NCBI GenBank assembly: GCA_934446365.1 | Contig: CAKSDZ010000003.1 | Location: 72,587-136,586, forward strand | Origin: an uncultured Eubacteriales bacterium | Lineage (GTDB): Bacteria > Bacillota > Clostridia > Oscillospirales > CAG-272 | Length of the DNA: 64,000 bases | Direction of reading: 5' to 3' | Shown here: positions 7,562 through 50,583 of the stretch, in pieces | Numbering within the stretch: position 1 is the stretch's first letter | Layout of the letters: each line of letters starts with the position of its first letter | Made by a program: the position numbers and the translations under genes | The notes under the pieces: model-generated | Told to the model about the DNA's origin: nothing | What the model saw: the letters and a program-made list of their open reading frames with translations, nothing else | Database searches by the model: none

Positions 7562-9583
7562 ATGAAACAAAAGAAGAGGGGCTTTACGCTGGTAGAGCTC
7601 GTCATCGTCATCGCCGTCATCGCGATTCTTGCGGGCGTGATGATCGCCGTGTTTGCGAATGTCGTGAATAAGGCGAACGAATCCGCGAAGTTGCAGGATG
7701 AGAAGCAGGCGGAGATTCAACAGAAGCTCGAGGATATCGAGCAGAAGCTGAACAATCAGAACTGGCTCGGCTGGGAGGATTTTGAGAATGAGCTGGCGGC
7801 GCAGCTGGCCGAGGCGAATGCGTCTTCTCAGGCGGAAATGAAAATTGCGATCGACAATGCCTTGAAGGAATATGCAAGCGCCGGATCGAATACCGGACTT
7901 ACGGAAGAGCAGGTAAAGACCATCATTGAACGCGCTCTTTCCGGCCAGCTCACCGAGGAGCAGGTGAAGCAAATCGTGACGACGGCTGTGAAAAACTCGT
8001 CCGGCTCAACGCTTACGGCTGCCGAGGTAAGCAGAATCGTGAGCACGGCGGTGGCAAACAATTTGACGGCGGATCAGGTAAAAACGGTTGTGAATAATGC
8101 GCTTGCCGGCATTACAACGGATATTTCAACTTTGAAAGCAAATGCTCTGACAGAAGAGCAGATTCAGGCTATGCTGGAATCTTATCTTCCCACGTCAAAG
8201 GATTATCCTGCCGGTACGGCGATCGATTTTGGTAAGCTGGTTTCCGGAAGTACTGTCAATTTGACGGGCGATTGGTCGTCTGCTACGTTGGATATCGTGT
8301 ATGATGCTGCCAAAACCTTTACAGTTACCGGTTCCGCGGTCGGGACAGTCAACATCAAGGCTCCTGCCGGAACGGTCAATCTCTATGCCGATGCGGCAAC
8401 GGCGAAGGTGACTGCGATTGCCAACAATTCGCTGCATATTTACAGCAAGGTCACATCACTGTCCGTGACGACCGGACGTGTTGTTCTTGAAAAAGGCTCT
8501 GTCGAAACTTTGACACTGGCTTCTGCATCTTCCGATGCCGTTACATTGGAAATTGCGAAAAATACAACGATTGGCACCCTTGCTGTGCAAGGCGCTGCCG
8601 GTGTTGTAACGGTCGAAAACAACGGAGCGATCAACGCCATCACAGGAACGGCAGGAAGCACGATTGTCGTTTCCGGTTCCGGCGAAACCATGACACCTGT
8701 CAACGGAGATAATTCCAATGTAACTGTCAATGGAACGGAAACACTTTCTTATAATGGGTCTGTCAATGTATTTACGGCAGCGAATAGCGGAAGCATCGTC
8801 AAGCTGACCGCGGATGTTACGACTGCGATTGTCATCCCCGAGGGTACGACGTTTGTTCTCGATTTGAATGGTCACAATGTTACGGTCGAAGGGGCACATG
8901 CCATTACCAATAACGGCACATTGACGGTTAAAGGTGAGGGAATTGTGGATGCTTTAACTCACGCAAAGGCGGCATTGTTTAATGCGCAGGGAGCAACCGC
9001 TATTTTAAACGGAGGTACATTCACCCGTAGCTTGGAAAACGGACAAGATAAGGAGGATAGTGGTGGAAACTCTTACTATGCGATTCATAATCAAGGGACG
9101 ATGACCATTAACAGCGGAGTAACCGTATCGCAAAGCGGACATTATTCCAGTATGCTTGCAAATGGATGGTATGATGGAAATCAGAATGATTCTCATATTG
9201 AAGCGGTTCTTATTATCAATGGCGGTACTTTTGAGGGTGGACTTAATACCATCAAAAACGATGACTGGGGCGTTGCGACCATCAACGGCGGAACGTTTAC
9301 TAACTTTACGCAGTATGTTGTGATGAACTGGAACAAACTCGATATCAACGGCGGTGCTTTCTATCATGGTGGTAGCACAGTCGTGTGGAGTGGATATGGC
9401 AACGCTCAAATGGATCAGGGTATTTTGAATATTACCGGTGGCACATTTGATGGAACTATTTATAAATACGGTGCTAATGGAAGAATTATCATCACAGGGG
9501 GTACATTTAACTCCGATGTTACAACCTATGTTCCTGCCGGCTATACCTATGATGCTACAACCGGAACGGTTTCCAAGAATTAA
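7562..9583 (+). CDS. large type IV pilin-like protein (prepilin N-terminal cleavage/methylation domain plus repeat and beta-solenoid-like region)
   Basis: MKQKKRG|FTLVELVIVIAVIAILAG prepilin signal with Glu at +5; AGGAGG RBS upstream. About five copies of LT(E/A)(E/D)QVKxIV repeats, then a G/T/N-rich region with recurrent NGGTF motifs. Confidence 0.8.
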   Translation: MKQKKRGFTLVELVIVIAVIAILAGVMIAVFANVVNKANESAKLQDEKQAEIQQKLEDIEQKLNNQNWLGWEDFENELAAQLAEANASSQAEMKIAIDNALKEYASAGSNTGLTEEQVKTIIERALSGQLTEEQVKQIVTTAVKNSSGSTLTAAEVSRIVSTAVANNLTADQVKTVVNNALAGITTDISTLKANALTEEQIQAMLESYLPTSKDYPAGTAIDFGKLVSGSTVNLTGDWSSATLDIVYDAAKTFTVTGSAVGTVNIKAPAGTVNLYADAATAKVTAIANNSLHIYSKVTSLSVTTGRVVLEKGSVETLTLASASSDAVTLEIAKNTTIGTLAVQGAAGVVTVENNGAINAITGTAGSTIVVSGSGETMTPVNGDNSNVTVNGTETLSYNGSVNVFTAANSGSIVKLTADVTTAIVIPEGTTFVLDLNGHNVTVEGAHAITNNGTLTVKGEGIVDALTHAKAALFNAQGATAILNGGTFTRSLENGQDKEDSGGNSYYAIHNQGTMTINSGVTVSQSGHYSSMLANGWYDGNQNDSHIEAVLIINGGTFEGGLNTIKNDDWGVATINGGTFTNFTQYVVMNWNKLDINGGAFYHGGSTVVWSGYGNAQMDQGILNITGGTFDGTIYKYGANGRIIITGGTFNSDVTTYVPAGYTYDATTGTVSKN

Positions 9584-9595
9584 GAGGTGAAATAC

Positions 9596-10051
9596 ATGAA
9601 ACAGAATAATAAGAAAAAAGGCTTTACGCTTGTTGAGCTTGTCATCGTTATTGCGGTGATTGCAATTCTTGCGGGCGTGATGATTGCCACATTCTCAAAT
9701 GTGGTGAGCGACGCAAAGGAATCCGCAGCTATGCAGGAAGCGAAATCCAAAATCGATGCGGAATACATCGACTTTATCACAAATAATCCGGGTGAGGTTC
9801 CGGCTTCCATTTTCATCGGTGTTGCCGACGGCAAAGTGACGAATGTTGCATTTTCATCGAATCCCGATGAGCCGGGATTTATTAAGCTTGCAGGTGAGAA
9901 TGATGATATTGTAATCCTGACGCTCGGTGAGGAAAGCTTGGTGTTTACATGGACGGAGAAGGGCTATACGCTGGAAACCAAAACGGGTGTTACAGCGAGG
10001 ACGACAAACGCGACAACTGCGACCGAGGCTACTTCGCCGGAACAACCTTAA
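9596..10051 (+). CDS. type IV pilin-like protein (prepilin N-terminal domain)
   Basis: MKQNNKKKG|FTLVELVIVIAVIAILAG. ATG 9596 lies 8 nt after AAGAGG; the track start at 9587 is a GTG inside the RBS. Confidence 0.8.
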   Translation: MKQNNKKKGFTLVELVIVIAVIAILAGVMIATFSNVVSDAKESAAMQEAKSKIDAEYIDFITNNPGEVPASIFIGVADGKVTNVAFSSNPDEPGFIKLAGENDDIVILTLGEESLVFTWTEKGYTLETKTGVTARTTNATTATEATSPEQP

Positions 10052-10122
10052 TTTATACGACGATAGAAAGCGAAAGCTTTTTATCATATAGCGTGATGAT
10101 CACGCACTCCTAAAGAAATGGC

Positions 10123-10158
10123 GGAAAGGCGCGTTGCGGAGCGCCTTTCCGTCTTTTT
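10123..10158 (+). terminator. rho-independent terminator after pilin genes
   Basis: GGAAAGGCGC-GTTGCGGA-GCGCCTTTCC followed by GTCTTTTT. Confidence 0.7.
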
Positions 10159-10250
10159 ATAGAGATAGACACTCATTCCGATTTCGGGATGGGTGTTTTT
10201 GTTTTGTGTGAATGAAATTGCGAACAAATATATGAAATCAACTGAAATAA

Positions 10251-10264
10251 AGAACAAATGTTCT
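10251..10264. promoter_or_regulatory. LexA (Cheo/DinR) box-like palindrome
   Basis: AGAACAAATGTTCT has perfect GAAC-N4-GTTC halves, 10 bp upstream of the -35. Related partial sites occur at 10221-10233 and 10280-10291. Confidence 0.45.
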
Positions 10265-10273
10265 CAAAATTCG

Positions 10274-10302
10274 TTGACACACAAATGTTCGCATGATATA
10301 AT
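10274..10302 (+). promoter_or_regulatory. sigma-70 promoter of phage head/packaging operon
   Basis: TTGACA (10274-10279), 17-bp spacer, TGATATAAT extended -10 (10294-10302). Confidence 0.55.
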
Positions 10303-10348
10303 GGCGTCGCAGGGAACAAAAATACATCGAGAAAGGAGGGCGGTCGCG

Positions 10349-10585
10349 ATGGACGGAATTTTTGATGAAAATTTAGAGGATTCGATAGAAAATCCAAGCG
10401 ATTATCGGGCGATTGCCTATTGTGATCACTGCGGCTTCGCTATTTATACGGCCGAAGAGGCATTGCTTGTAAAGGGAAGCCGCGACATCATCCACACCGA
10501 TTGCTGGGAGGAATACGCAGCAGATCATATGTTCGACTTTGTGATGAAAGCGGACGAGGACGGCCGTTTCGGTCATGGGCTCTGA
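10349..10585 (+). CDS. small Cys/His zinc-ribbon-like protein (first gene of head module)
   Basis: ATG 10349 follows GAAAGGAGGG. 78 aa with CDHC...HTDC; its stop overlaps the next start. Confidence 0.5.
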   Translation: MDGIFDENLEDSIENPSDYRAIAYCDHCGFAIYTAEEALLVKGSRDIIHTDCWEEYAADHMFDFVMKADEDGRFGHGL

Positions 10586-11024
10586 AAAGAGCGGACATGC
10601 CAAAAAGCAGGAGATCGCGCCGTCTGTTTTCGCAAGAAAGGCGGCGGCTTATTTTCGGGAATGCGACAGCGGCACGGCGACGGCGGCGTGCGACACGTGC
10701 GGGACGGAATTCGGAGACGCGAAGTGTGGAAAATGCGGCAAAAAACAGCGGCGTCCCTACACGCTTTCCGGCCTTTGCCTCGCGCTTGGAATCACCAAGC
10801 GAAAATTCGCAGCCCTCAAAGGCGATCAAAGCTTTGCGGACGCCGTAGAAATGGCACTTTTAAAAATTGAGGCGTATATTGAGGAAAACAGCATCACGGG
10901 GCATATCAGCGGGACGCTGGCGCTTGCGATTCTGCGCGAGAATTTCGGCTGGGGCGAGAAAACGGAATCCACGGACAGGATCGAGGTCGTGATGTCGGAG
11001 GAGGTCGGCTCTCTTGCAAAATGA
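10575..11024 (+). CDS. phage terminase small subunit-like protein
   Basis: 149 aa immediately upstream of and overlapping TerL. Contains a Cys cluster (CDTCG..CGKCG) and the segment PYTLSGLCLALGITKRKF typical of small terminase/packaging HTH proteins. Confidence 0.55.
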   Translation: MGSEKSGHAKKQEIAPSVFARKAAAYFRECDSGTATAACDTCGTEFGDAKCGKCGKKQRRPYTLSGLCLALGITKRKFAALKGDQSFADAVEMALLKIEAYIEENSITGHISGTLALAILRENFGWGEKTESTDRIEVVMSEEVGSLAK

Positions 11025-12342
11025 CGGCACCGAACGCCTCATTCTTGACATGAAGCCGTCGGCAAAGCAGCGGGAATTTTTTCTCTCCGAGGCGAAATTC
11101 ACCGCTTACGGCGGTGCGCGCGGCGGCGGGAAAAGCTTTGCTTTGCGCTATAAGCTGATTTTATTGTGTCTTGGATATCCGGGAATCCGCGTGCTGCTTG
11201 TCAGACGCAGCTATCCGGAGCTGCGGGAGAACCATATCCGCCCGCTGTGTGCGCTGCTTTGCGGCAAGCCTGCCGCTGCGGTTTACAGCGAACGGGACAA
11301 ATGCTTTGCGTTTTCCTGCGGTTCTCATCTTCAAATGGGATATCTCGCGGGGCACGGCGACCTGCTTCGCTATCAGGGGCAGGAGTACGACGTCATTGCC
11401 ATCGATGAGGCGACGCAGATCGACGAGCAGATGTTTCAGGCGCTTTCGGCTTCTTTGCGCGGTGCGAACCGTTTCCCGAAACGCATGTATCTCACGTGCA
11501 ATCCCGGCGGCGTGGGACACGGATGGGTCAAACGGCTTTTCATCGACAGGGAATACCGCGGCGCGGAAAATCCGGCGGATTACCGCTTTATTCCGGCCGG
11601 CATATACGACAATGAGGCGCTGATGAGGGCGGACCCGGACTATGTGAAACGGCTCGAAAATCTGCCGGAGGGCTTGCGCGCCGCATGGCTTTATGGCAGA
11701 TGGGATGTCTTTTCCGGTCAGTTTTTTCCGGAGTTCGATGAGCGGCGGCATGTATGCGAGCCGTTTTCGCTGCCGTCCTCTGCCGCGCATTACTGCGCGG
11801 TCGATTACGGACTTGACATGCTGGCGGCGCTGTTTATCGCGGTTCTGCCCGACGGACATGCTTATGTCTATGATGAGATTTATGCAAGCGACCTCATTGT
11901 CAGTACGGCCGCCGCCAAAATCCGAGAGAAGCTGCCGGAGAGGGCGGTTGTCATCGCGCCGTCCGACCTTTGGAGCCGAAGCCGTGACAGCGGACGCTCC
12001 GCTGCGGAGCTTTTTGCCGATGGCGGCGTCTATTTTACCAAAATCGTTCCGGATCGGGTGAACGGATGGCTTGCGCTCAAAGAGTGGCTTATGGTGACGA
12101 ACGGTACGCCGCGGCTGCGGATTTTTCGCGGCTGCCGCAATCTCATCCGCTGTCTTGCACAGCTGATGTATGATGAAAGGCGTCCGAACGACGCCGCCGT
12201 CGAACCGCACGAGCTCACGCACGCGCCGGATGCGCTGCGATATTTTGCGTCCTTCCGACAGGCGGTGCCGCCGGCGGAGCCGACGCTTCTGCGCGGTCGG
12301 AACGGAATCAAGAAAACAGAAAGGAATCGATATGAATTTTAA
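11014..12342 (+). CDS. phage terminase large subunit
   Basis: Walker A YGGARGGGKS, Walker B VIAIDEATQI, C-terminal nuclease-size domain. TTG start 9 nt after GAGGAGG; ATG 11050 is the alternative. Confidence 0.85.
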   Translation: MQNDGTERLILDMKPSAKQREFFLSEAKFTAYGGARGGGKSFALRYKLILLCLGYPGIRVLLVRRSYPELRENHIRPLCALLCGKPAAAVYSERDKCFAFSCGSHLQMGYLAGHGDLLRYQGQEYDVIAIDEATQIDEQMFQALSASLRGANRFPKRMYLTCNPGGVGHGWVKRLFIDREYRGAENPADYRFIPAGIYDNEALMRADPDYVKRLENLPEGLRAAWLYGRWDVFSGQFFPEFDERRHVCEPFSLPSSAAHYCAVDYGLDMLAALFIAVLPDGHAYVYDEIYASDLIVSTAAAKIREKLPERAVVIAPSDLWSRSRDSGRSAAELFADGGVYFTKIVPDRVNGWLALKEWLMVTNGTPRLRIFRGCRNLIRCLAQLMYDERRPNDAAVEPHELTHAPDALRYFASFRQAVPPAEPTLLRGRNGIKKTERNRYEF

Positions 12343-14035
12343 ATTTTGGAAGCATGGCGCGGAAAGCGGGGTGTCCTCCTGTCATGACGCTTCCGCAAGG
12401 GAACGGCGGATTGCCGCACTCCTCGACGCCGCCAAAACGGCAAGGAGCGGGACAGAGGCATATTGGCGGAAAATGCGCGCCTATTATGACGGCACGCACG
12501 ACACCGCAAAACAGACGGGGGATTTCATGGCCTCGCTCGACCTGCCGTGGATACCGGCGTCCGTGCCGGACGGATATATGCATGTCGAAAGTCAAATCGA
12601 GGCGAGCCCGCCCGATTTTGAATTTTCCGGCAGAGGTGAGTCCGACGAGGCGAAGGCGGATATCAGAGAGCGCGTGGTGCGCTATGTCGTGCAGAACAAC
12701 GACTTTACGGCGAAAAATGCAGCAAATGAGCGCAGGCTCGGCATCTACGGCAGCGCCGCATGGAAGCTTTCCGTCGGCCGCGGAGACGCAGGCGATGCGG
12801 AAATCCTGATTGAGAATCCGCCGCCGCAGACGCTCTTTCCCGACCCCGCGGCGACGTGCGTCGACGACTGTGAATATATCGGCTGCGTCTACCGGATGAG
12901 CGTCACACGCGCCGCCCGCATCTTCGCGGCCGACCTCGACCGACTGGGACTTACGATGGAGGAAATCCTGCGCGAGCGGGCATACGGGCGCAAAAGAGGA
13001 GCTGGGGATTCCTTGTTCGAGGGCGGCGGCGATCCGTCGGAGACGGTCGAAATCACGGAGTGGTGGTTCCGTCAGCCGCGGGACGGCGAGGAGGTCTGCG
13101 GTCTTTGCGGCGACGCCGGCACGGAAAATGTGACGTTCCGCTATGAAGCGGGGGATATCGCGCTTTCGATTCTGATTGAAGGGGTCGAGGTGCGGTACGT
13201 GCCGAAGTATTGGACGAAAACCGCATGCCGGAAATTCCCGTTTGTCATCTACGGCAAAATTCCGGGGGACGGCTCGATTTGGGGAAAAAGCGAAATGGAA
13301 CAGCTCATTCCGCTCATCGACGCCGCCGACAGGCAGCTCGCGTTCGCACAGCTCAACACGGCGTTTTTTGCCAATGATATCCTCGTATATGAGGAAAACG
13401 CCTTTGCGCCGGACAGCTATCCCGAAAACCGTCCGGGCGCAATATGGAAGCTGCGTCCCGGCATGTCGGATAAGGTGAAGCGGCTCGGAGGGCTTTCCGG
13501 CGACAGCATTTCCCATTATGAGATTGCGGACAGATACCGCGCCATGATGAAGGAGGCGCTCGGCAACTACGACTTTATGCAGGGCGACAGCTCAACCAAA
13601 GTCACGACGGCGACAGGGCTTGCCCTGCTCGGCGATTACGCCTCCCGCAGGATGCAGGCGAAAAATATCTGCAAGCGCGCGGGCTTTGAGCGGTTGTATA
13701 GGCTGATCGACTATATGGCGCTCGAGCTTTACGACTCCGACAAGGTGAAAGCCATCACGGACAGCGACACGGGATATTCCTTTGAAGAATATCTCGGCAC
13801 GGTCGGCTATGTGCCGGCGCTCGATGTGGTCGTCCATATCGGGGAGGGCGTCGAGAATTCGCATTCGTTTACGCTTTCCGCTTTGTCGGAGCTGATGGAG
13901 ACGGAGGTCACGGAGGCGAATTATCCGATGGTGCGCGCTTATATCAATGCACTGGGCATTCCGGAGCGCGCCTCGCTGATCGCGGCGCTGGACAGCAAAT
14001 TTGAAGGAAAAGCAGAGGAGACAACGCATGAATGA
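12332..14035 (+). CDS. phage portal protein
   Basis: 567 aa directly after and overlapping TerL. Size and position are canonical. ATG 12332 was chosen over the Arg-rich upstream extension from 12170. Confidence 0.7.
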   Translation: MNFKFWKHGAESGVSSCHDASARERRIAALLDAAKTARSGTEAYWRKMRAYYDGTHDTAKQTGDFMASLDLPWIPASVPDGYMHVESQIEASPPDFEFSGRGESDEAKADIRERVVRYVVQNNDFTAKNAANERRLGIYGSAAWKLSVGRGDAGDAEILIENPPPQTLFPDPAATCVDDCEYIGCVYRMSVTRAARIFAADLDRLGLTMEEILRERAYGRKRGAGDSLFEGGGDPSETVEITEWWFRQPRDGEEVCGLCGDAGTENVTFRYEAGDIALSILIEGVEVRYVPKYWTKTACRKFPFVIYGKIPGDGSIWGKSEMEQLIPLIDAADRQLAFAQLNTAFFANDILVYEENAFAPDSYPENRPGAIWKLRPGMSDKVKRLGGLSGDSISHYEIADRYRAMMKEALGNYDFMQGDSSTKVTTATGLALLGDYASRRMQAKNICKRAGFERLYRLIDYMALELYDSDKVKAITDSDTGYSFEEYLGTVGYVPALDVVVHIGEGVENSHSFTLSALSELMETEVTEANYPMVRAYINALGIPERASLIAALDSKFEGKAEETTHE

Positions 14036-14564
14036 TAACATAACAGAAGAAGACAAAACGCCCGTCGCCGGTTTCAATCGGGACGACGGGGACATGGAAT
14101 CCGCGGAAAACGGTGGGGTGGCGATGCCCGCCGCCCCGGACGGGGAAGCGCCGCCTGCCGCCGGTGCGGCTGGGGATTCCGACTTGCAAGAGGAGAACGC
14201 CGTACCGGCGGATATCTCTTTGGAAAACACGGGACCGGAAAGAGAACTCGACGATGCGCGCATCGCGGAGCTTTTGGCAAATCCGATGTTTATCCGTTTT
14301 GCGCGCGGACGCAGCGGCGGGCTTGAAACGGTCTGCCGCGAATTTGAGGAGATGCTGGCTTTGGGCGGGAAAGTGTCGGCTCCCCGCATGGCGGCGCCGA
14401 TTGCGGCGAAAATCGTACCCGCATCCTCCTCCGCTACGCCGGACGTGGCGCTGAACGAACGGCAGCGCGCAATCGCGCGCACCGCCGGCATGTCATACCG
14501 GGAATATTATGAGCTGATTTCCGAGCTTCCCGGTTCCAATCATCAAAATTATAAAGGAGAATAA
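14028..14564 (+). CDS. acidic scaffolding-like protein
   Basis: 178 aa, Asp/Glu/Ala/Pro-rich, located between portal and capsid genes. Its start overlaps the portal stop. Confidence 0.4.
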   Translation: MNDNITEEDKTPVAGFNRDDGDMESAENGGVAMPAAPDGEAPPAAGAAGDSDLQEENAVPADISLENTGPERELDDARIAELLANPMFIRFARGRSGGLETVCREFEEMLALGGKVSAPRMAAPIAAKIVPASSSATPDVALNERQRAIARTAGMSYREYYELISELPGSNHQNYKGE

Positions 14565-14567
14565 AAA

Positions 14568-15467
14568 ATGAGTAACGATATTTATACTTGGTCAAATGAT
14601 ATGTATCCGCTCGTCAAAAAGCGTTTTGACGACAGATATGCTTCGAGAATGAATCTCATCGGCAATGTATGCGGCATTGTGAAGCAGAATGAGCTTTCCT
14701 ATGAGCTGCCGGGGCTCGGCGGCTACGGCGAGCTTCCGGTGTATTCCGGCGGCACGCTTTCCTATGCGGACGGCAGCAAGAGCTTTCTTGCGACGGTGAC
14801 GCCGGTGGAACGCGCGCTTGCCATTCCGGTTTCCTATAAAAGAGCGAAGATCGACATTGTGGGCGAGGCCGACAAAACCGGCGTCCGGCTTGCGGATTCC
14901 GCCTATATGACGGTGCTCGGCGAATTTTACCGCGTGTTTGGAAACGCGCTTACCGCGAAGGGTGCGGACGGCGTCGCATGGGCGTCCGCTTCGCATCCGG
15001 TGGATACGACTGCCGACAGCGATACGTTTTCCAACCTGATTACCACGGAGCTTTCCGTCGCGGCGATCTGCGCGGCACAGGCCACGGCGGCGTCCTTTGT
15101 GACGGCGGACGGGCTTCCGTTTGTGGCGAATTTCGACCTGCTTCTCGTTTCGCCGGAGCTGGAAGGCACGGCAAGAACCATCTGCGGCGAGGATGCGCTT
15201 CTCACGCCGGCGGGCGGTGTCGGCGGCAATCCCTACGGCATGAAATACATGGTGGTCGGCGGAGGCGGCGTCGGCTTCTCGGGCAAAAGATGGGCGCTCG
15301 CGGACAGCATGCTGCTGCCGGAGGTTTTGAAGCTCGTCTATATCACGGAGCCGTCCGTCGTGCTTTCCCCAAGGGAAAATCCGCTTGTCGCGGATTACAT
15401 TTCCTATGTCGATTTCGCGTTCGGCTTCGGAGATGCAAGACCGATCATCTTCTCGAATCCCGCCTGA
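14568..15467 (+). CDS. phage major capsid protein-like
   Basis: 299 aa with a strong AAGGAG RBS. Position after portal and scaffold, and size typical of HK97-fold/gpT-like coat proteins. Followed by a strong hairpin. Confidence 0.6.
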   Translation: MSNDIYTWSNDMYPLVKKRFDDRYASRMNLIGNVCGIVKQNELSYELPGLGGYGELPVYSGGTLSYADGSKSFLATVTPVERALAIPVSYKRAKIDIVGEADKTGVRLADSAYMTVLGEFYRVFGNALTAKGADGVAWASASHPVDTTADSDTFSNLITTELSVAAICAAQATAASFVTADGLPFVANFDLLLVSPELEGTARTICGEDALLTPAGGVGGNPYGMKYMVVGGGGVGFSGKRWALADSMLLPEVLKLVYITEPSVVLSPRENPLVADYISYVDFAFGFGDARPIIFSNPA

Positions 15468-15486
15468 ACGAATGAAAAATCGGAAA

Positions 15487-15512
15487 TCCGGAGGAGCGGC
15501 CGCTCCTCCGGA
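15487..15512 (+). promoter_or_regulatory. perfect 26-nt palindrome after capsid gene (attenuator/stabiliser-type hairpin)
   Basis: TCCGGAGGAGCGG/CCGCTCCTCCGGA with no U-tract. The 3-prime arm abuts the RBS of the next gene. Confidence 0.4.
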
Positions 15513-15526
15513 GAAAGGAGAACTTT

Positions 15527-16120
15527 ATGACTTACGGAATGCTGCGTGACCGTATTTTATCGCTTTTGGATATCGGCACGGAGGAGCTGGCGTCTGAGGG
15601 AAGCCTGCTTTCGGCGGCGGACGGCCTGCTGCCGCAGACTGTGGACGCCACAGCGCGAAAGGCAGCTTTGCTTTTGAAATGTATCGTCAAAACGGCAGTG
15701 CTTCATTTTGAGTATGGCGAAAGTGATGCCGTGGCGGTGCTGCCGTCCGATTTTATCTCCGCGAAGCAGCTTCGCTGCGGCCGGAAAACCTATGGAAGCG
15801 AGAGCTTCGAGGCGGTGGGCGGGAGGCTTTGGTTTTTTGCCGCAGGAGCGGGAACATATGAGCTTGTGTATTTTGCCTATCCTGCGCGGATAGACGGGAG
15901 CATCGACGGCGACAAGGAGCTGGAATTTGACGATTACGCGGCGGATATCGTCGCATACGGCGCCGCGGCGGAGCTTTCTCATAGTCTTTATCCCGGCGAT
16001 ATGAAACGGTTTATGCGCCTTGCCACGGAATTTGACGAAAGAGCCGCGAACGCCGCTCCGCGTTCCGGCGACAGCGCCGTCCGCAATGCCGTTTTCGGCA
16101 GAAAGCGGGGTGTTCTATGA
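15527..16120 (+). CDS. hypothetical phage structural protein (head-tail adaptor position)
   Basis: 197 aa with an AAAGGAG RBS. Call is positional only, by analogy with a P22-like gene order. Confidence 0.45.
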   Translation: MTYGMLRDRILSLLDIGTEELASEGSLLSAADGLLPQTVDATARKAALLLKCIVKTAVLHFEYGESDAVAVLPSDFISAKQLRCGRKTYGSESFEAVGGRLWFFAAGAGTYELVYFAYPARIDGSIDGDKELEFDDYAADIVAYGAAAELSHSLYPGDMKRFMRLATEFDERAANAAPRSGDSAVRNAVFGRKRGVL

Positions 16121-17940
16121 GCCTGCTTCGAGTGAGAGGGAAAACGGGAACGGCGGAGGCTTATGACGAATTTGCACGGTATGACGAAGCATACCATGAA
16201 TATGCGATGAAGGATTTTTCGGGTGGTGTCATGACGGGAGAGCTTCATTCCCGTGCGGATACCGTTTCGCAGGCGGTGAATGTGCGCACGGATAGCAGCG
16301 GCGCTTTGGTTGCGATGTCCGTGCCGGTCACGGCCTTTGACGGGACGGTGGGCGCGGGGGAGATCGTATTCTCCTGCTATGACGACGGCATTTTGCTTTT
16401 CCGAAAGGGAAATACGCTGTATGCGGTAAAGGACGGCGCGCTCTCCGTGGTCGGCACCGCGGGCATGCTCCAATCGGAAAAAAGCGCCGTTTATACGGCG
16501 GACGGCCTATTCTGCATCATTGACGGCGACAGCATTTATATGGTTGACAGAGATCTCACCGTTTCCACGCCGGAGCCATATATTCCGACCTGTTATACGG
16601 ATGTTTCCGCGGACGGCGCTGTCAAAACGGAGAGCGAAAAGCCGAACCTGTTCTGCCGATACATCGATATCATCTTGGCAGCGGAATCGTCTCCCACACG
16701 GAAGATTCCGCCGGATATCGCCGTCGATGACACCTATATTCGGATATGGGATCTGACAAACGGCTCGGAGCTCGGCGATCCCGATTTCAACTTCGACGGG
16801 GAAACCATTCAATTTTTCGGGCTGTATTCTCGGAAATTCCGCGTTCGGCTGAAGCTTGCCGATTCCGGCACCTCCTCACAGCTGTCCTATACTTCCCTTG
16901 AAGCGCTGCGTGAGCTTGTTTCCTGCCCGGAAAAGGTGCTTCCGATATCGCTGCCGTCGTCGAGACTTGCCTATCTTTCTTTCGGCGGTGAAAACGGAAG
17001 ATGGATCACGGCCCTGAAAATGGAGGGCATATCGGATTTCTTATATCTTTCGGATGATAATATTATAAGGAAAGAATATCCGGAGAGGATCGCTTCGATC
17101 GTCGAGTATTCCGATGGATATTTTGTGTTTTCCGCCGGTGCCGTTAAAAAGCTGTTTATCACGGAGGATGAAAACGGCGTTCCGGTGTTTGAAATCAAGA
17201 GCTTCAAGAACGATTTCGGCTCGGATATGCCAGGCAGCATATGCGGCTTCGACGATAAAATTCTGTTTGCAAATTCGCGCGGCGGCGTGTATTATATCAA
17301 CAAATTCGGCATTTCGGAAAAGGACGTGAGCCGGCATATTTCCCGCAATATCGAGCAGGGAGAAAACGGATTTTTTTCTCATACCGAGGCGGAATATGCG
17401 GCGGCCTGTGCGGTTTGTGCGTTCGGGCGGTATATGCTGACGGTGGGCGATATGACCTATATTTGGGATTATACCGCAAGGCTGCCGTCCGGCACGCAAA
17501 GCAGGGAGGATGAAGATAAAATGATATGGACGATGTGCGACGCCGTTTGCCCGTCGGCGTATCTGTCGGAGCTATCCAAAAAGTTGTATTATACGGATAG
17601 GACGACCGGAGCGCTCCGCTGTTTTTCCTCGGACGATTCCGAATCGGACCCCATAGCGATCCGTGTCGAAACGGCCGCCTGCGATTTCGGCGAGAGCGCG
17701 GAAAAAGTCCTTATTGGCTTGTCGGTGCGATATCGGGCGGCGGAAAATGTGACGCTTCGTCTTTTGTTCGACGGAGAATTTTCTCCGTGCGAATATGTCC
17801 TGCCGCCGCAGCCGCGGTTTGGTACGGTGAATTTGAAAATCCATTCGGTGCGGCTTGTAAAATGTGCGGCTATGCTGGAATGCTCCCGTTCTTTTTCGCT
17901 GGAAAGCGTTCATTTTCGCTATCTTTCGGCGAAATCTTAA
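16117..17940 (+). CDS. hypothetical phage structural protein (607 aa; hub/neck position)
   Basis: ATGA start/stop overlap with the previous gene; last gene before the terminator. No recognisable motif by eye. Confidence 0.45.
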   Translation: MSLLRVRGKTGTAEAYDEFARYDEAYHEYAMKDFSGGVMTGELHSRADTVSQAVNVRTDSSGALVAMSVPVTAFDGTVGAGEIVFSCYDDGILLFRKGNTLYAVKDGALSVVGTAGMLQSEKSAVYTADGLFCIIDGDSIYMVDRDLTVSTPEPYIPTCYTDVSADGAVKTESEKPNLFCRYIDIILAAESSPTRKIPPDIAVDDTYIRIWDLTNGSELGDPDFNFDGETIQFFGLYSRKFRVRLKLADSGTSSQLSYTSLEALRELVSCPEKVLPISLPSSRLAYLSFGGENGRWITALKMEGISDFLYLSDDNIIRKEYPERIASIVEYSDGYFVFSAGAVKKLFITEDENGVPVFEIKSFKNDFGSDMPGSICGFDDKILFANSRGGVYYINKFGISEKDVSRHISRNIEQGENGFFSHTEAEYAAACAVCAFGRYMLTVGDMTYIWDYTARLPSGTQSREDEDKMIWTMCDAVCPSAYLSELSKKLYYTDRTTGALRCFSSDDSESDPIAIRVETAACDFGESAEKVLIGLSVRYRAAENVTLRLLFDGEFSPCEYVLPPQPRFGTVNLKIHSVRLVKCAAMLECSRSFSLESVHFRYLSAKS

Positions 17941-17944
17941 AAAA

Positions 17945-17978
17945 ACAGCCGGAAAAATTGATTTCCGGCTGTTTTTTT
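17945..17978 (+). terminator. rho-independent terminator closing the head module
   Basis: ACAGCCGGAAA-AATTGA-TTTCCGGCTGT followed by T6. Confidence 0.8.
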
Positions 17979-17999
17979 CCGTTATTTATGGTATAATTA

Positions 18000-18464
18000 C
18001 CCCACAAATGCGGAGCATTTGTGTTAAAGGAAATAGAAACATGGCAGAAAGCCTAAAAGGGTATAGATCGCTTGGACGAAAGACACCCCACAAATGCGGA
18101 GCATTTGTGCCCATGGAAATAGAAACATGGCAGGAAGCTTAAAAGGGTATAGATCGCTTGGACGAAAGCTACCCCACAAATGCGGAGCATTTGTGTTAAG
18201 GGTAACAGAAACATGGCAGAAAGCTTAAAAAGGTATAGATCGTTTGGATAAAAGACACCCCACAAATGCGGAGCATTTGTGTCCATGGAAACAGAAACAT
18301 GGCAGAAAGCTCAAAAGGGTATAGATCGCTTGGATGAAAAACACCCCACAAATGCGGAGCATTTGTGTCTATGGAAACAGAAACATGGCAGAAAGTCCAA
18401 AAGGGTATAGATCGCTTGGATAAAAGACACCCCACAAATGCGGAGCATTTGTGTCCATGGAAAC
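18000..18464. repeat. 86-bp tandem repeat array, 5.4 copies, each with an invariant palindrome
   Basis: Copies start at 18000, 18086, 18172, 18258, 18344 and 18430, an exact 86-bp period. All carry CCCCACAAATGCGGAGCATTTGTG (9-bp arms CACAAATGC/GCATTTGTG). The remaining 62 bp are about 90% conserved. Confidence 0.9.
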
Positions 18465-18689
18465 GAAAAACCGGGAATGTTAAAGTATAGAATCATGCGG
18501 ATATATCCAATATAAATAAGATCGAGAATTTTTCTCGCCGGCGGCCTCGTTGAAATTTGGATTTTTGCCAATCGGAAAGCATCGGCATTGGGCGCGATTC
18601 CAAACGGAAAAATATAAATAAAAAATTTTTTTGTAAAAAATGTGACCTGCGCAGGGTCTTATGCGTTTTACATACAGGAGGGACAAAAA

Positions 18690-44112: not shown

Positions 44113-44967
44113 ATGCCAGATATCAGAAATACTTCGCCGACATGCGGCGGACAGGGCCGTGATTCGGTATATATAGATACAAATAGGATTCTCGACAGCT
44201 GCCGTGATAAGGACTGCTATGAGGACGTCGTCGTTTATCTTTCGGATGCGGGAAGCGATCTTCTCGAAAGAAGCGGAAGCGTTCGCACGAAGTGCGCCAA
44301 GGTGATTTGCGCGAACATACATGTGGATTCCGTACCGTTCAACCGCGGTTTTTATCAGATCAGCATCACGATGTATATCAAGATCGTATGCGAGGTCTGC
44401 GCCTGCATGGGCAGACCGCAGGAGGTCGAAGGAATCGCCGTCGTAGAGAAAAAGGTCATCCTTTACGGCAGCGAGGGCAACGTCAATATCTTTAAGAGCG
44501 AACCCGGATCGCAGAACTTCTGCGGCTGCGCAAACGCGGAACAGCCCGGAACGAATCTGCCGATCGCCGTTTTCGAGGTCGCCGATCCGATCGTTCTCAA
44601 TACCAAAATCGTGGAAGCGTGCGAATGCCATAATTGCCATTCGTGCCTTTCCGCTTCCGATCTGCCGGAATCCGTATGCAGCTGCATAAACGGCAGAATC
44701 AACTGTGAGCCGGCAGGCAAGGTCCTGACCGTTTCGCTCGGCTTCTTCTCCGTCGTGAGAATCGAGCGCCCCGCTCAGTATCTTGTCTACGGCACCGAAT
44801 ACACGGTTCCCGAAAAGGAATGTGTATCCCCGGCGACCGACGATCCGTGCAAGATGTTCAAGCACATGGCGTTCCCGATCAACGAGTTCTATCCGCCGTC
44901 TCTTTGCGACGTGAAGGGCTCCGAGACCGACGGGATGACCGGCGGCTGCGGCTGCGGCAAACGCTGA
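44113..44967 (+). CDS. cysteine-rich hypothetical protein (284 aa, no signal peptide)
   Basis: More than 20 Cys, including CEVCAC, CGC, CECHNCHSC, CSC and a GGCGCGKR tail. Its 3-prime 123 nt are duplicated at 47004. Confidence 0.6.
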   Translation: MPDIRNTSPTCGGQGRDSVYIDTNRILDSCRDKDCYEDVVVYLSDAGSDLLERSGSVRTKCAKVICANIHVDSVPFNRGFYQISITMYIKIVCEVCACMGRPQEVEGIAVVEKKVILYGSEGNVNIFKSEPGSQNFCGCANAEQPGTNLPIAVFEVADPIVLNTKIVEACECHNCHSCLSASDLPESVCSCINGRINCEPAGKVLTVSLGFFSVVRIERPAQYLVYGTEYTVPEKECVSPATDDPCKMFKHMAFPINEFYPPSLCDVKGSETDGMTGGCGCGKR

Positions 44968-45210
44968 TCAGTCAAGATAAATCTGAAAAAATGCCCCTTC
45001 GATGAGAGGGGCATTTTTTGATGCTGTGTCCCCGAGATGGAATCGATAGCAGATGTTTGTTAAATTTATGAAATTATTATTGACACGAATGATTATTTGT
45101 GTTATTATTGACTTAGAAAGGGCGATACCGATGCAGATAGGATAAAAATCTAAAATCAGACAAAATTTAACAAAAATCTGTTATAGGAAATGGAGGAAAT
45201 TATGAGAAAG
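44845..45210 (+). repeat. direct repeat copy 1 (3-prime end of Cys-rich gene, terminator, promoter, RBS and ATGAGAAAG)
   Basis: About 94% identical to 47004-47363. Contains the terminator at 44986-45019 and a TTGACA-17-TATTAT promoter at 45081-45109. Confidence 0.9.
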
Positions 45211-46584
45211 AAATTTTCAACAATGGTTATTGCTCTTTTGGCTTTTTCGTTATTAACAACAAATCTGTTTGCGATGCAAAATAAAATGGTGAGTTATGGA
45301 GATACATTTACAGATTTATTGGATCAAGATATATCGACAAGAGCTATTGGGCTTGTCTCAGGCGAACAGTATTATATTCAAAGTGCATATGCGGGAAGAT
45401 TTGTGGATGTGGATAATAATGCTGGATCACCGTATACGAATAGTAAGTTAGAGCAGTGGGATTTGGACACCAAGGAAACCAAAAAGTGGGAATTTATTAG
45501 TACGGGAGATGGTTATTTTAAAATAAAAAGTAGTTTGAAAGATGGATCTACTGAATTATATATGTCAGTAAAAAATAACTCATCTGCTAATGATACGGAT
45601 ATCATTTTGGCTCCTTATACAGCCGGAGACGGTCAAAAATGGAAGATTGGACTGGTAGAAGGAGACAGAGTGAAAATAATCCCTAAATGCGGAGAAAATG
45701 TGAATCGAGTTTTACGAGTAAATAATTCTCTTTGGGAACAAAATGGCTTAGATATAAAACTCTATAATTATACGGATGATAGTAATTATAAAGACGAATG
45801 GATACTTATCCGCACAATGCCGTTATCAGGTTATGAATTACCATATAATCCTTCTCTTTGGGAAGGCGTTGTCAAAGATACCAATAATTGTTATGCTTAT
45901 ATTCTTAATAATCAAGTATATCCGGGGACAACTTCCGCTTGGTTTAAGCAGCAGCCGGGACGGTATGCCGGATTAACATTGACACAGAGTCAAATACAAG
46001 GGAATGGTCAAAACATCCTCTATAATGTTTTAGAGGATTTTGAAGCATATAATGAGAATTTTGGTACAAATCTTGTATTTAATCAAATTGGACGATTTGA
46101 AAAATGTCCGCCTGGCTCATATAAGGTTGCTTTGGTAGTAAATCCTGGTGTTGATTATCATTGGTATAGACAGGATGCAGATGGATTTTGGTCTCATAAA
46201 CAGGGAACTACTGCTGTTAAAAGAACGGATGGTTCTAATCAATTGATTATCGATCCTATATTGGCTGATCGTGGTGATTATACTTCTTTCGTTGCATATT
46301 TTAAAGTCACGCCGTGGAACAATTATTATACGTCAGGGGGAATTGTTACATATAGTATTGAGGACGCTTTTGTCAACAAGATTGATAGAAATTCGTTGAA
46401 TCTTATTACTATAGGTATGTCATACAGTGAGGTAACTGCTATTTTAGGTTCATGTGGCGTGGATGCCGAATTTGGTATAGCGGCATTTCAATATGAGACT
46501 ACAGACGGCGATATATTTTATATTAGTTACATTGAAAATGAAAATCACGAGCTTATCGTTGCTGAAATATATCAGAAGGAGTAA
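45202..46584 (+). CDS. secreted ricin-B-lectin (beta-trefoil) domain protein with putative Cys/His peptidase-amidase domain
   Basis: Signal peptide; QxW motifs (EQWDL, QKWKI, DEWIL). Candidate catalytic Cys (TNNCYAY) and His (DYHWYRQD..WSHKQG). C-terminal GMSYSEVTAILG small domain. ATG 45202 lies 5 nt after GGAGG. Confidence 0.7.
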   Translation: MRKKFSTMVIALLAFSLLTTNLFAMQNKMVSYGDTFTDLLDQDISTRAIGLVSGEQYYIQSAYAGRFVDVDNNAGSPYTNSKLEQWDLDTKETKKWEFISTGDGYFKIKSSLKDGSTELYMSVKNNSSANDTDIILAPYTAGDGQKWKIGLVEGDRVKIIPKCGENVNRVLRVNNSLWEQNGLDIKLYNYTDDSNYKDEWILIRTMPLSGYELPYNPSLWEGVVKDTNNCYAYILNNQVYPGTTSAWFKQQPGRYAGLTLTQSQIQGNGQNILYNVLEDFEAYNENFGTNLVFNQIGRFEKCPPGSYKVALVVNPGVDYHWYRQDADGFWSHKQGTTAVKRTDGSNQLIIDPILADRGDYTSFVAYFKVTPWNNYYTSGGIVTYSIEDAFVNKIDRNSLNLITIGMSYSEVTAILGSCGVDAEFGIAAFQYETTDGDIFYISYIENENHELIVAEIYQKE

Positions 46585-46590
46585 TGCGTT

Positions 46591-46947
46591 ATGTCAAAGA
46601 AAAATCATGTGTTGCTTTGGGTTGTTTTATGCGCGTTTTTCTTTAATATGGTAATGCTGTCTTCCTGTGGAAAACAAGATCTTCCTTATGATGAAAGGAA
46701 GCTTAATACTTATATTGAACCGAATAAAAAAGAACTGCCAACACCGGAGGAATTTTCTGATGTGAAAGAGGGAATGACCTTTACGGAGGTAGTGGAGCTT
46801 GTCGGACGTCCCCAACGAGAGATTGGTTCCGGAGCGGTTATTTATGAATTTGATTTGTCGGACGGTTCTACGTATGCGGTTTACTTTATTACCGACCAAG
46901 AACATCGGTATGTTGTAAGTGGTATTATGAAACCGACGAATAAATGA
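46591..46947 (+). CDS. small lipoprotein (118 aa)
   Basis: Lipobox LSSC. The GMTFTEVVELVG segment resembles the C-terminal domain of the preceding protein. Confidence 0.65.
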   Translation: MSKKNHVLLWVVLCAFFFNMVMLSSCGKQDLPYDERKLNTYIEPNKKELPTPEEFSDVKEGMTFTEVVELVGRPQREIGSGAVIYEFDLSDGSTYAVYFITDQEHRYVVSGIMKPTNK

Positions 46948-47003
46948 AGGAGGAACGATTTTTATCGTTCCTCTTTCGTTTGCATATTCAAATTATATAA
47001 TGA

Positions 47004-47363
47004 CCGTGCAAGATGTTCAAGCACATGGCGTTCCCGATCAACGAGTTCTATCCGCCGTCTCTTTGCGACGTGAAGGGCTCCGAGACCGACGGGATGACCG
47101 GCGGCTGCGGCAAACGCTGAGCAGTCAAGATAAATCTGAAAAAATGCCCCTTCGATGAGAGGGGCATTTTTTGATGCTTGTCCATGAGATGGAATCGATA
47201 GCAGATGTTTGTTAAATTTATGAAATTGTTATTGACACAAATGATTATTTATGTTATTATTAACTTAGAAAGAGGTGATACCGATGCAGATAGGCTGAAA
47301 ATCCAAAATTCGACAAAATTTAACAAAATTCTGTTATAGGAAATGGAGGAAATTATGAGAAAG
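47004..47363 (+). repeat. direct repeat copy 2 (includes a start-less 3-prime fragment of the Cys-rich gene)
   Basis: Matches 44845-45210 with a 6-bp deletion (CTGCGG) and about 20 substitutions. Terminator copy at 47139-47172. Confidence 0.9.
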
Positions 47364-47384
47364 CGTGTTTAAAAATTATCTTTT

Positions 47385-48572
47385 TTGATTGCGGTAGTTT
47401 TTATCTTACAACTGCTTTTTATTTTATCTGTGTCGGCGGACAATGCGATTACTTTTGCTGATACTGCATCCAGTGTAACGCTTGTGGATGGAGAATATTA
47501 TATTCAAAATCGCTTTCGTCCTCGTTATGTTCAAGTGGATGACAACGATAAACCTGGATATTCTACGTCTGGCAGTATTTTGGAGCAGTGGAATTTCTGT
47601 GGAGATGCTCACCAACGTTGGATGATTACATCTGTGGGAGACGGTTATTACAAGATCGTAAATGTAAAAAGCGACAAGGCGATTTCTGTCCCTGCCAACA
47701 AAATAGGGAGTGAGGATGTTGCTTTGGTGCAGGAACCGTATGCAGGATTAGACCGTCAAAAATGGAAGATTACATGGACGAAATATGGTTCTTTCAAAAT
47801 CAAAGCAAAATCTGCGGAAGCCATTACCAATAAAGATCTTGCTATGGTTATCGGCGACAGTTTATTGGGTGACAGCGATGGCTTGAATGTGGAACAGAGA
47901 AAATATGTCGATAATAACAGCTTTCGAGATGAATGGAATCTGCATTTTGTAATGTCAGATACCGGAACTGCGGTGGAAGGGCAAAAGAAAGATAATTGGT
48001 GCTGGGTGGCTACTTCAAGGATGTTTGCTAAACATTATTTTCCTAATGTTACTTACACTCAAAATCAAGCTGTCGTAGATATATATGGCAGTGAAGTGGA
48101 TGTAAAAGCCGGTTTGCAAGAATCGGCGAGTGCAATGAATTTCTATATATCGAATCTAACCAGTAATGTATTTAATATTAGAGGAACTGGTTGGGAATAT
48201 GGAGTCTATTCTGAGCAAACTGTTCGTACTTTTTTAGATAATAATCATGTTTTATTTATTGGACTTGGGCTATATAATAGTGATAATGTAAATACTCGTC
48301 AAAATGGTCATGTTATTTTAATTTATGGTTATACAAAACAGACCATTATAGATGATAATGGGGCTGTAAATACAAAATATTGGTTTCTTGTAAGAGATCC
48401 ATGGCCTAAAAATCAAGGAAAAAGTTATATGATATCTTATGAGAAATTATATAATGGCCGAAATCCACAGATATTTGAGGAAGCAGATAAATATGTGTGG
48501 GAATGTCAAATTGTTATCAATACCAGTTATTCATCAAATTTAGTTCCAGGCCATTTTACATACAACGAATAA
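47385..48572 (+). CDS. ricin-B-lectin domain protein with C39-like/papain-fold cysteine peptidase domain (N-terminus interrupted)
   Basis: QxW motifs (EQWNF, QRWMI, QKWKI, DEWNL). Peptidase motifs are QKKDNWCWVATS (Cys) and NGHVILIYGY (His). The canonical ATG at 47355 is followed by an in-frame TAA at 47370, so the ORF only reopens at TTG 47385. Confidence 0.6.
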   Translation: MIAVVFILQLLFILSVSADNAITFADTASSVTLVDGEYYIQNRFRPRYVQVDDNDKPGYSTSGSILEQWNFCGDAHQRWMITSVGDGYYKIVNVKSDKAISVPANKIGSEDVALVQEPYAGLDRQKWKITWTKYGSFKIKAKSAEAITNKDLAMVIGDSLLGDSDGLNVEQRKYVDNNSFRDEWNLHFVMSDTGTAVEGQKKDNWCWVATSRMFAKHYFPNVTYTQNQAVVDIYGSEVDVKAGLQESASAMNFYISNLTSNVFNIRGTGWEYGVYSEQTVRTFLDNNHVLFIGLGLYNSDNVNTRQNGHVILIYGYTKQTIIDDNGAVNTKYWFLVRDPWPKNQGKSYMISYEKLYNGRNPQIFEEADKYVWECQIVINTSYSSNLVPGHFTYNE

Positions 48573-48585
48573 TAGGAGGATATAG

Positions 48586-49371: not shown

Positions 49372-49531
49372 GAATTTGAGGCAAAAAGAGAGTGACCGAT
49401 ATTCGGTCACTCTCTTTTTGCAGAAAGGCTTGTAATATAACAAAATATGTGATAAAATAATGTTGAAAGATATGCAAGTAAGTCAAAATTGGGAAGCTTC
49501 CCCGCCAACTAACGAAAGGAGATAGAATGAT

Positions 49532-50365: not shown

Positions 50366-50396
50366 TTTTCGGTCGGATCACGAAAAAAATAACAAG

Positions 50397-50434
50397 GCAA
50401 AGCCCTCCTGTTTTCGGGAGGGCTTTGCTTTTTT
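50397..50434 (+). terminator. rho-independent terminator at island end
   Basis: GCAAAGCCCTCC-TGTTTTCG-GGAGGGCTTTGC followed by T6. Confidence 0.8.
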
Positions 50435-50583
50435 CGCCTTGATATCGCATTAAAGCCGATAAAATTGCAAATATACAGAGATTTTTCCAAATTATAACAC
50501 TTTGCGGTGTTATTGTATAAAAAATAGAAGAATTTCTATTATAATAAATGGTAAATACTGTAATTTAAATGGGAGGAAAAATT

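Follow-up and report, generated by a model that had tools for sequence, protein, structure and literature searches.

A podovirus-type head and tail-core operon with a predicted LexA operator, maintained in the chromosomes of gut and rumen Clostridia as a candidate gene transfer agent

What is a phage head operon doing in a bacterial chromosome that carries no other part of the phage around it? This question is raised by a block of eight genes in the genome of an uncultured Eubacteriales bacterium (CAG-272), which we analysed within a stretch of 64,000 nt (assembly GCA_934446365.1, contig CAKSDZ010000003.1, positions 72,587-136,586 of the forward strand), hereafter called the window. An earlier note on this sequence had described the block as a phage head and packaging operon without a tail, of an architecture that it did not recognise, and had judged it a domesticated unit, either satellite-like or resembling a gene transfer agent (GTA), rather than a decaying prophage. 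We consider it reasonably probable, from sequence and gene content, that the block is a LexA-controlled, domesticated podovirus-type operon forming particles that package host DNA, with fibres and lysis functions supplied from another locus. Its most likely origin is a short-tailed (P22/SU10/T7-like) phage, of which it would be a chromosomally fixed descendant.

The block consists of eight open reading frames (ORFs) on the + strand (10349-17940) that are translationally coupled and lie between a single sigma-70-type promoter and a single terminator, with a promoter-to-terminator length of 7.7 kb. The earlier note had listed eight intact, co-directional ORFs bounded by one promoter and one strong terminator, which are present just as it described them, and the five start/stop overlaps that it reported (10575/10585, 11014/11024, 12332/12342, 14028/14035 and 16117/16120) are all real. 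The promoter matches TTGACA-17-TATAAT at 12 of 12 positions, with a TG extension of the -10 element, and the best start of the first gene, orf1, is the ATG at 10349, placed behind a GGAGG ribosome-binding site. The GC content of the module is 56.5% compared to 51% for the rest of the window, in which 2-kb windows range from 34% to 59%.

Predicted structures identify the products of the last two genes, of 197 and 607 amino acids (aa), as a podovirus tail adaptor and a tail nozzle, respectively. The AlphaFold model of the adaptor (pLDDT 86) was matched by Foldseek to the tail adaptors of SU10, LME-1, KHP30, crAss001, GP4 and T7 (gp11), and a homologue sharing 80% identity with it exceeds the gathering score of the Pfam family SU10_adaptor. 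For the nozzle (pLDDT 85.8, pTM 0.81), the best 23 PDB matches were all nozzle or hub proteins, with E-values from 8e-18 to 2.5e-10, including those of Pa223, T7 (gp12), P22 (gp10), SU10 and Sf6, and its leading matches in BFVD, a collection of viral predicted structures, were P22 gp10-like. Sequence identity of both proteins to their SU10, T7 and P22 counterparts is only 8-17%. Sequence searches of the PDB with the major capsid protein, portal, adaptor, nozzle, large terminase (TerL) and orf1 product returned nothing useful, and fold comparison alone worked. The earlier guess of an adaptor and a hub for these two genes agrees with the fold searches, while the statement that the operon lacks a tail has to be divided: the core of a tail is encoded, and fibres, needle and ejection genes are indeed absent. 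The operon is therefore one that encodes a phage head together with the core of a short tail. Its adaptor and nozzle folds, its P22/SU10-type portal and the order of head, adaptor and nozzle are those of the tail machines of podoviruses SU10, T7 and P22, whereas these phages add fibres or tailspikes, needle or plug, ejection or core proteins, and full replication and lysis programmes.

The preceding genes account for packaging and head assembly. Profile matches assign a P22 gp3-type small terminase (TerS), TerL and a P22/SU10-type portal, while orf1, whose acidic product belongs to a family without assigned function, is conserved as the opening gene of the block (cluster c7, 58 loci). Near its N-terminus, TerS carries a CxxC-x8-CxxC insertion resembling a zinc ribbon, while the rest of the protein is P22 gp3-like; the orf1 product also has a Cys/His motif. 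For the major capsid protein, the most conserved product of the block, more than 500 homologues were found. A precomputed PF25209 (Phage_capsid_4) annotation is present on nearly all of the 120 homologues listed, and some, such as P0052, match Mu-like gpT above threshold. Between portal and capsid lies a gene for a 178-aa protein with no family match in Pfam, PHROG or NCBIfam profile searches. Its position and acidic composition suggest a scaffold, and its C-terminal motif AGMSYREY is kept across the family. NCBIfam provided no names for the module proteins except for a weak PBSX-type match of TerL.

Neither the operon nor the rest of the 64-kb window contains replication, lysogeny or integration genes. 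A Pfam scan of the roughly 50 other proteins of the window returned host-type proteins and no integrase, repressor, tail protein, holin or lysin, in keeping with what the earlier note had reported. Furthermore, the window lacks tRNA genes, and no att-like direct repeats flank the block.

We then compared the block with its relatives by scanning one genome per GTDB species, which yielded 92 capsid-encoding stretches, of which 80 loci were kept and their flanks read up to 10 kb on each side; ORFs within the loci were chosen with a codon-usage model. The block was found in 80 contigs of metagenome-assembled genomes (MAGs), all from gut or rumen Clostridia, with carrier labels that include Oscillospiraceae, Acutalibacteraceae, Ruminococcus sp., Eubacterium sp. 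CAG:841 and Candidatus Apopatosoma. Gene order was identical in every locus of sufficient length. Two architectures were observed: type A corresponds to the eight genes of the window, and type B comprises eleven genes, with an additional 215-aa gene before the capsid gene, a ~89-aa gene after it and a gene for a coiled-coil TolA-like protein after the nozzle gene. When flanking ORFs were clustered, recurrence across loci was limited to module genes. The flanks consist of host genes that vary by lineage (YfhO, radical SAM, NFACT/RqcH, extracytoplasmic function (ECF) sigma factor, MBOAT and ribosomal proteins), and no integrase, tail or lysis family recurs within 10 kb of the block across the 80 loci. 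The orthologous blocks are thus flanked by host genes and not embedded in prophages. The same NFACT (RqcH-like) gene immediately precedes the block in 14 loci, among them that of the window.

Two further observations concern these relatives. A few type-B loci (L035, 14300-15697; L053, 7698-9236; L051) encode extra proteins after the coiled-coil gene, in which a common N-terminal domain is fused to SH3 and CHAP domains or to a weak SLT-like domain. These proteins are candidate virion-associated or lytic peptidoglycan hydrolases and hint at the type of accessory genes that are missing elsewhere. The contig of locus L059 is labelled Sphaerochaetaceae; its module and downstream flank genes cluster with those of L060 (Eubacteriales), which suggests a mis-binned contig.

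The evolution of the block resembles that of the chromosome around it. Compared with five relatives, the ratio of nonsynonymous to synonymous substitution rates (dN/dS) of the module genes ranged from 0.04 (capsid) to 0.42 (scaffold), and both dS and amino-acid identity of the module were comparable to those of the flanking host genes in the same relatives. Among the 67 loci that have all six core families clear of contig ends, the six core genes were free of frameshifts in 66; the remaining flags raised in this check reflected divergence of the adaptor. For the 14 NFACT-linked loci, the mean identity of capsid, TerL and portal followed that of NFACT with a Spearman coefficient of 0.92 over 91 non-independent pairs. 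Module proteins shared 59-65% identity where NFACT shared 45-53% (64% vs 53%, for example) and are therefore at least as conserved as NFACT. The core genes are intact and evolve under purifying selection as fast as the host genes beside them, which bears out the preference of the earlier note for a domesticated unit. Selection, intactness, synteny and co-divergence together rule out a decaying prophage, and the last two speak strongly against either a mobile satellite or a phage in circulation.

In the single exception to intactness, L009, the nozzle gene (~11549-13400) is split over two frames, owing either to a frameshift or to an assembly error.

The block is also nearly absent from collections of mobile elements. 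Using tblastn, we found no match to the major capsid protein, portal or nozzle among 50,697 phage records, and none to the major capsid protein in plasmids. In IMG/VR, only 2 short contigs out of 2.9 million matched, at least one of which contains a fragment of a host gene. The best matches of TerL were unverified scaffolds from faecal viromes, and true phages reached only ~35% identity. Three such scaffolds, L089 (MT836592.1, 9588 bp), L090 and L091, are recorded as 'UNVERIFIED Bacteriophage sp.' and come from a Mexican human faecal sample set. The gene order of L089 (TerS-TerL-79aa-portal-280aa-278aa-123aa-adaptor-nozzle) matches the overall architecture of the block, with 57% identity to family members for TerL and 26% for adaptor and nozzle. 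L089 may represent a further lineage of such elements, present in data of the virus-like particle type.

In Bacillus and Clostridium, the operator bound by LexA is GAACN4GTTC/T (PMC4234289). The box GAACAAATGTTC located next to the -35 hexamer is the sole exact GAAC-N4-GTTC in the 64-kb window, and within the promoter spacer lies an imperfect second box, ACACAAATGTTC, with a perfect right half-site and two mismatches in the left half, that is kept in L081, L008, L009 and L010. Across the relatives, the 500-nt zone preceding the block contains exact boxes at a density of 2.44/kb (77 hits, 63 loci), compared to 0.027/kb elsewhere (33 hits in 1.22 Mb), a ~90-fold difference (Fisher p ~3e-96); the majority of the leftover intergenic hits sit ahead of the module as well. 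Of the 67 loci, 49 have one exact box or more. Most related loci of both types share a layout in which the box is followed after ~10 nt by TTGACA, a 17-nt spacer and TG-TATAAT, and type-B loci often have 2-4 boxes that bracket promoter and leader. An exact GAAC-N4-GTTC that overlaps or abuts the promoter is also the arrangement of the LexA (Cheo-box) regulon of Bacillus and Clostridium, but the predicted targets here are virion genes instead of DNA-repair genes. These motifs suggest direct repression by host LexA and induction in the SOS response.

The functions that the block retains from its presumed ancestor are packaging (TerS, TerL), head assembly (portal, scaffold, capsid) and the tail core (adaptor, nozzle), and a possible course of events can be drawn from them. 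Host LexA would hold off a very strong sigma-A promoter through one operator beside the -35 hexamer and a second, weaker one in the spacer. Upon DNA damage, cleavage of LexA would release expression of the eight coupled genes, procapsids would assemble on the portal with the help of the scaffold, TerS and TerL would package cellular DNA by a headful mechanism, and adaptor and nozzle would close the portal vertex. Lacking genes for replication, integration and excision, the operon can neither amplify itself nor move, and the particles would therefore carry host DNA, as in gene transfer agents. Fibres or receptor-binding proteins and lysis functions would come from elsewhere in the genome. We infer that LexA binds these operators, that particles form and take up host DNA, and that a second locus exists.

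A published precedent exists for such a system, which is thus not categorically new: FpGTA of Faecalibacterium prausnitzii, presented by its authors as the first podovirus-like GTA (Borodovich et al., Nat Commun 2026, PMC12946183). Operon I of FpGTA (~10 kb, 10 genes) encodes TerS, TerL, portal, a Prp-annotated protein, a capsid of the N4-gp56 family, a small protein, adaptor, nozzle, one further product and an abundant TolA-annotated protein, while operon II, 125 kb away, encodes fibres, a receptor-binding protein, holin and endolysin (PMC12946183). The particles measure ~40 nm, have no visible tail and contain ~9 kb of host DNA, and the term LexA has 0 occurrences in the paper (PMC12946183). 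The architecture that the earlier note had failed to recognise has the gene order of FpGTA operon I. Both are chromosomal, integrase-less, podovirus-type operons of gut Oscillospirales with no fibre or lysis genes in the operon itself, and both run in the order TerS, TerL, portal, scaffold-position protein, major capsid protein, (small protein), adaptor, nozzle. Type-B relatives match operon I almost gene for gene, including the small gene after the capsid gene and the TolA-like gene. The version in the window, with 8 genes in 7.7 kb as opposed to 10 genes in ~10 kb, is a subset without these two, and three genes of operon I have no counterpart in it. The TolA-like protein, abundant in FpGTA particles, is among the products that the window's version lacks. 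The hosts differ as well, Faecalibacterium for FpGTA and other, uncultured Clostridia for the block. Because its capsid falls outside the N4-gp56 family and its genes are fewer, we do not assign the block to the FpGTA family and regard it as a system of the same kind.

Other known systems share part of these properties. The GTAs of Alphaproteobacteria of the RcGTA type are siphovirus-like, with a tube and a tape measure encoded in a ~15-kb cluster, and are regulated by CtrA, GafA and quorum sensing, with an indirect role for LexA. They resemble the block in vertical inheritance, purifying selection, a head and packaging cluster and the lack of replication and integration genes, and also in host regulation as predicted for the block; they keep accessory genes elsewhere in the genome, and their proteins are not known to be related to those of the block at the sequence level. 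Capsid-forming phage-inducible chromosomal islands (cf-PICIs; Alqurainy et al. 2023) are likewise small islands with their own capsid, portal and terminase and no complete tail, but they have integrase, regulatory and replication modules, mobility and the use of whole helper tails, none of which was found for the block. The block is neither a complete prophage nor a cf-PICI, the latter because it lacks an integrase, a replication module and mobility. By definition, GTA particles carry essentially random host DNA, in an amount smaller than needed to encode the particle, and deliver it to recipients. Two hallmarks of GTAs are evident at the DNA level: phage-derived genes for head and packaging reside on the host chromosome, unaccompanied by modules for replication, integration or lysogeny, and they are inherited vertically under purifying selection, as indicated by the position next to NFACT, the correlation of 0.92 and the dN/dS values given above. 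The GTA-like half of the earlier proposal is thus upheld, and the satellite-like half is not, given the conserved position and the lack of an integrase, a replication module and a mobility signature.

Several points weigh against the reading of the block as a LexA-controlled, host-DNA-packaging particle operon. Purifying selection and intactness would be expected equally of an active mobile element. The box is called a LexA operator by motif identity only, and in one sub-lineage (L002-L004, L018, L020) it lies ~720 nt upstream of TerS, with no recognisable consensus promoter near orf1; regulation may differ there. None of 25 major capsid proteins of the family matched any NCBIfam model of N4-gp56, the capsid family of FpGTA, even at E-values up to 10, so that the likeness to FpGTA is one of published gene order. 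No fibre, needle, ejection-protein, holin or endolysin gene is present in the operon or in the rest of the 64 kb, which leaves delivery and release to an assumed second locus. In addition, the comparison loci are all MAG contigs with heuristic gene calls.

The same sub-lineage has two other peculiarities: the distant box lies beside a divergent CmpB-like membrane gene, and the nozzle measures 801 aa instead of ~600. With respect to capsid relatedness, a search at the level of 50% representatives gave 411 capsid relatives, of which only 27 lay below 1e-30. We considered scaffold MT836592 as a bridge to FpGTA and rejected it: for all its matching architecture, its capsid likewise lies outside the N4-gp56 family.

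Competing explanations have to be weighed against this evidence. Some phages, GIL01-type among them, place their lytic genes directly under LexA, and the block could be part of an active, unconventional temperate or chronic phage with host LexA as repressor and its other modules more than 10 kb away or on another replicon. Besides this precedent, purifying selection is what a live virus would display, and virome scaffolds encode related TerL, adaptor and nozzle proteins. Such a phage is nonetheless unlikely: syntenic host housekeeping genes occupy both flanks on contigs of up to 683 kb, divergence of the module mirrors that of host genes, and capsid, portal and nozzle have no counterpart among the phage genomes searched. 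A capsid-forming satellite of the cf-PICI kind, making its own small capsids, packaging itself and borrowing fibres or tails from a helper, would account for head and packaging genes without fibres or lysis, for a 7.7-kb span that could fit a small head, and for relatives of the same architecture seen as 6.6-9.6-kb faecal virome scaffolds. We find it a little less credible still, as neither the window nor the 10 kb on each side of the 80 loci holds an integrase, excisionase, replication or regulatory module, att-like repeats and tRNA genes are missing, the chromosomal position is conserved with co-divergence from a host neighbour down to ~45-50% NFACT identity, the block hardly occurs in IMG/VR, and it encodes an adaptor and a nozzle of its own that cf-PICIs do not need.

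The gene content, a subset of a P22/T7-type virion module from which structural genes for infection are absent, might also be taken for a cryptic remnant, namely the structural module of a dead podovirus that stayed intact by chance or arrived recently and has no host function. This is very improbable, because neutral decay over such divergence would have destroyed the ORFs, whereas the core genes are intact in all but one of the loci checked, across deeply diverged species, dN/dS stays low at saturated dS, the capsid is among the most conserved genes of the region and the regulatory architecture is conserved. A domesticated particle may instead serve a purpose other than transfer, such as SOS-triggered export or sequestration of DNA in fibre-less capsids, for which the eight genes would suffice. 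The type A block, stable in many species without any gene for host recognition or ejection, and its apparent link to DNA damage are in line with such a role, to which we give the same low probability as to the active phage; it is without precedent, adaptor and nozzle are DNA-delivery parts under purifying selection, and in FpGTA, the closest known system, a second locus supplies fibres and lysis.

Going beyond the reading of a particle operon that packages host DNA, we propose tentatively, and with less than even confidence, that the block founds a second, independent sequence family of podovirus-type GTAs, fixed in the chromosomes of a whole family-level clade of uncultured gut and rumen Clostridia, reduced here to eight genes (7.7 kb) and placed under direct SOS control by LexA operators on either side of a consensus promoter. 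If true, it would be the first GTA with a direct LexA switch, as well as a candidate for the clusters behind GTA-like packaging signals in gut Clostridia that have no assigned source. Recent long-read viromics has revealed large-scale packaging of short, seemingly random stretches of bacterial chromosome into capsids in the gut, most of all in Ruminococcaceae and Oscillospiraceae, with the gene cluster pinned down in Faecalibacterium only (PMC12946183; bioRxiv 10.64898/2026.07.08.737213). Our analysis adds a compact cluster of FpGTA-like design, present in at least 80 assemblies of uncultured Clostridia with evidence of long-term retention by the host, and a genomic signature by which it can be recognised: LexA box, consensus promoter, and orf1-TerS-TerL-portal-scaffold-MCP-adaptor-nozzle, where MCP is the major capsid protein. 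If functional, the block would tie horizontal gene flow among commensals to DNA damage caused by antibiotics, inflammation or bile, and its eight genes would be an unusually small structural set with respect to the minimal needs of a GTA.

Table 1. Features of the operon and its boundaries, in window coordinates.
Feature	Position	Strand	Basis or remark
Intrinsic-terminator-like hairpins (two)	10120-10153, 10167-10198	+	End the upstream pilin genes and insulate the operon
Predicted LexA (Cheo) box, exact, GAACAAATGTTC	10252..10263	.	10 nt upstream of the -35 hexamer
Sigma-70-type promoter	10274..10302	+	TTGACA 10274-10279, 17-nt spacer, TATAAT 10297-10302
Imperfect second LexA-like box, ACACAAATGTTC	10279..10290	.	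Inside the promoter spacer; read from sequence
orf1, 78 aa, acidic, CxxC...HxxC	10349..10585	+	phrog_33578 1e-5 (unknown function)
Small terminase TerS, 149 aa, P22 gp3 type	10575..11024	+	Pfam GP3_package 2e-15; phrog_606
Large terminase TerL, 442 aa, TTG start	11014..12342	+	phrog_979 8e-43; Terminase_6N, Terminase_3
Portal, 567 aa, P22/SU10 type	12332..14035	+	P22_portal 8e-14; SU10_portal 5e-8
Scaffold-like protein, 178 aa, isoelectric point 4.4	14028..14564	+	Position and composition only
Major capsid protein, 299 aa	14568..15467	+	Phage_capsid_4 on homologues; Mu-like gpT on some
Predicted podovirus tail adaptor, 197 aa, SU10 / T7 gp11 type	15527..16120	+	Predicted structure and Foldseek
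Predicted podovirus tail nozzle/hub, 607 aa, T7 gp12 / P22 gp10 type	16117..17940	+	Predicted structure and fold search
Intrinsic terminator	17939..17978	+	17-bp stem followed by a T-run

Some alternative gene calls were set aside. A 130-aa form of orf1 starting at 10193 was rejected as an over-extension in favour of the 78-aa product, and antisense ORFs of up to 400 aa inside the block were dismissed as GC-driven artefacts using the codon-usage model.

Directly upstream of the block (window 7562-10051) are two genes with type IV pilin N-terminal methylation motifs. The C-terminal half of the 673-aa pilin-type protein contains Gly/Thr/Asn-rich repetitive segments that, as read from the sequence, resemble beta-helix adhesins. 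The pilin pair borders the block in the window, in L005, where a T2SSE ATPase gene precedes the pair, and in L081, and in no other locus. Pilin genes and the ECF sigma factor gene were rejected as functional partners of the block, since they adjoin it in the nearest lineages only.

Downstream, an 86-bp tandem repeat (5.5 copies, 90% matches, window 17999-18468) lies between the terminator of the operon and the ECF sigma factor gene. Every unit holds a hairpin, CACAAATGC-GGA-GCATTTGTG, which occurs 6 times in the window, 3 times in the closest relative, L081, and in no other locus, indicating a lineage-specific array of variable copy number. We rejected it as a conserved pac site, regulatory element or RNA element, given that no Rfam family matched, folding was weak (z -1.9 and -1.3) and the array was confined to the window and L081. 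The 8-mer CACAAATG is common to the 86-bp repeat and the imperfect LexA-like box of the promoter, which may be due to chance.

Further away, a low-GC island (window ~44900-50400, 34-39% vs 51%) encodes secreted ricin-type lectin and peptidase C39-like proteins and is followed by an HTH_3 regulator gene (50569-50823). This island looks horizontally acquired and unrelated to the operon.

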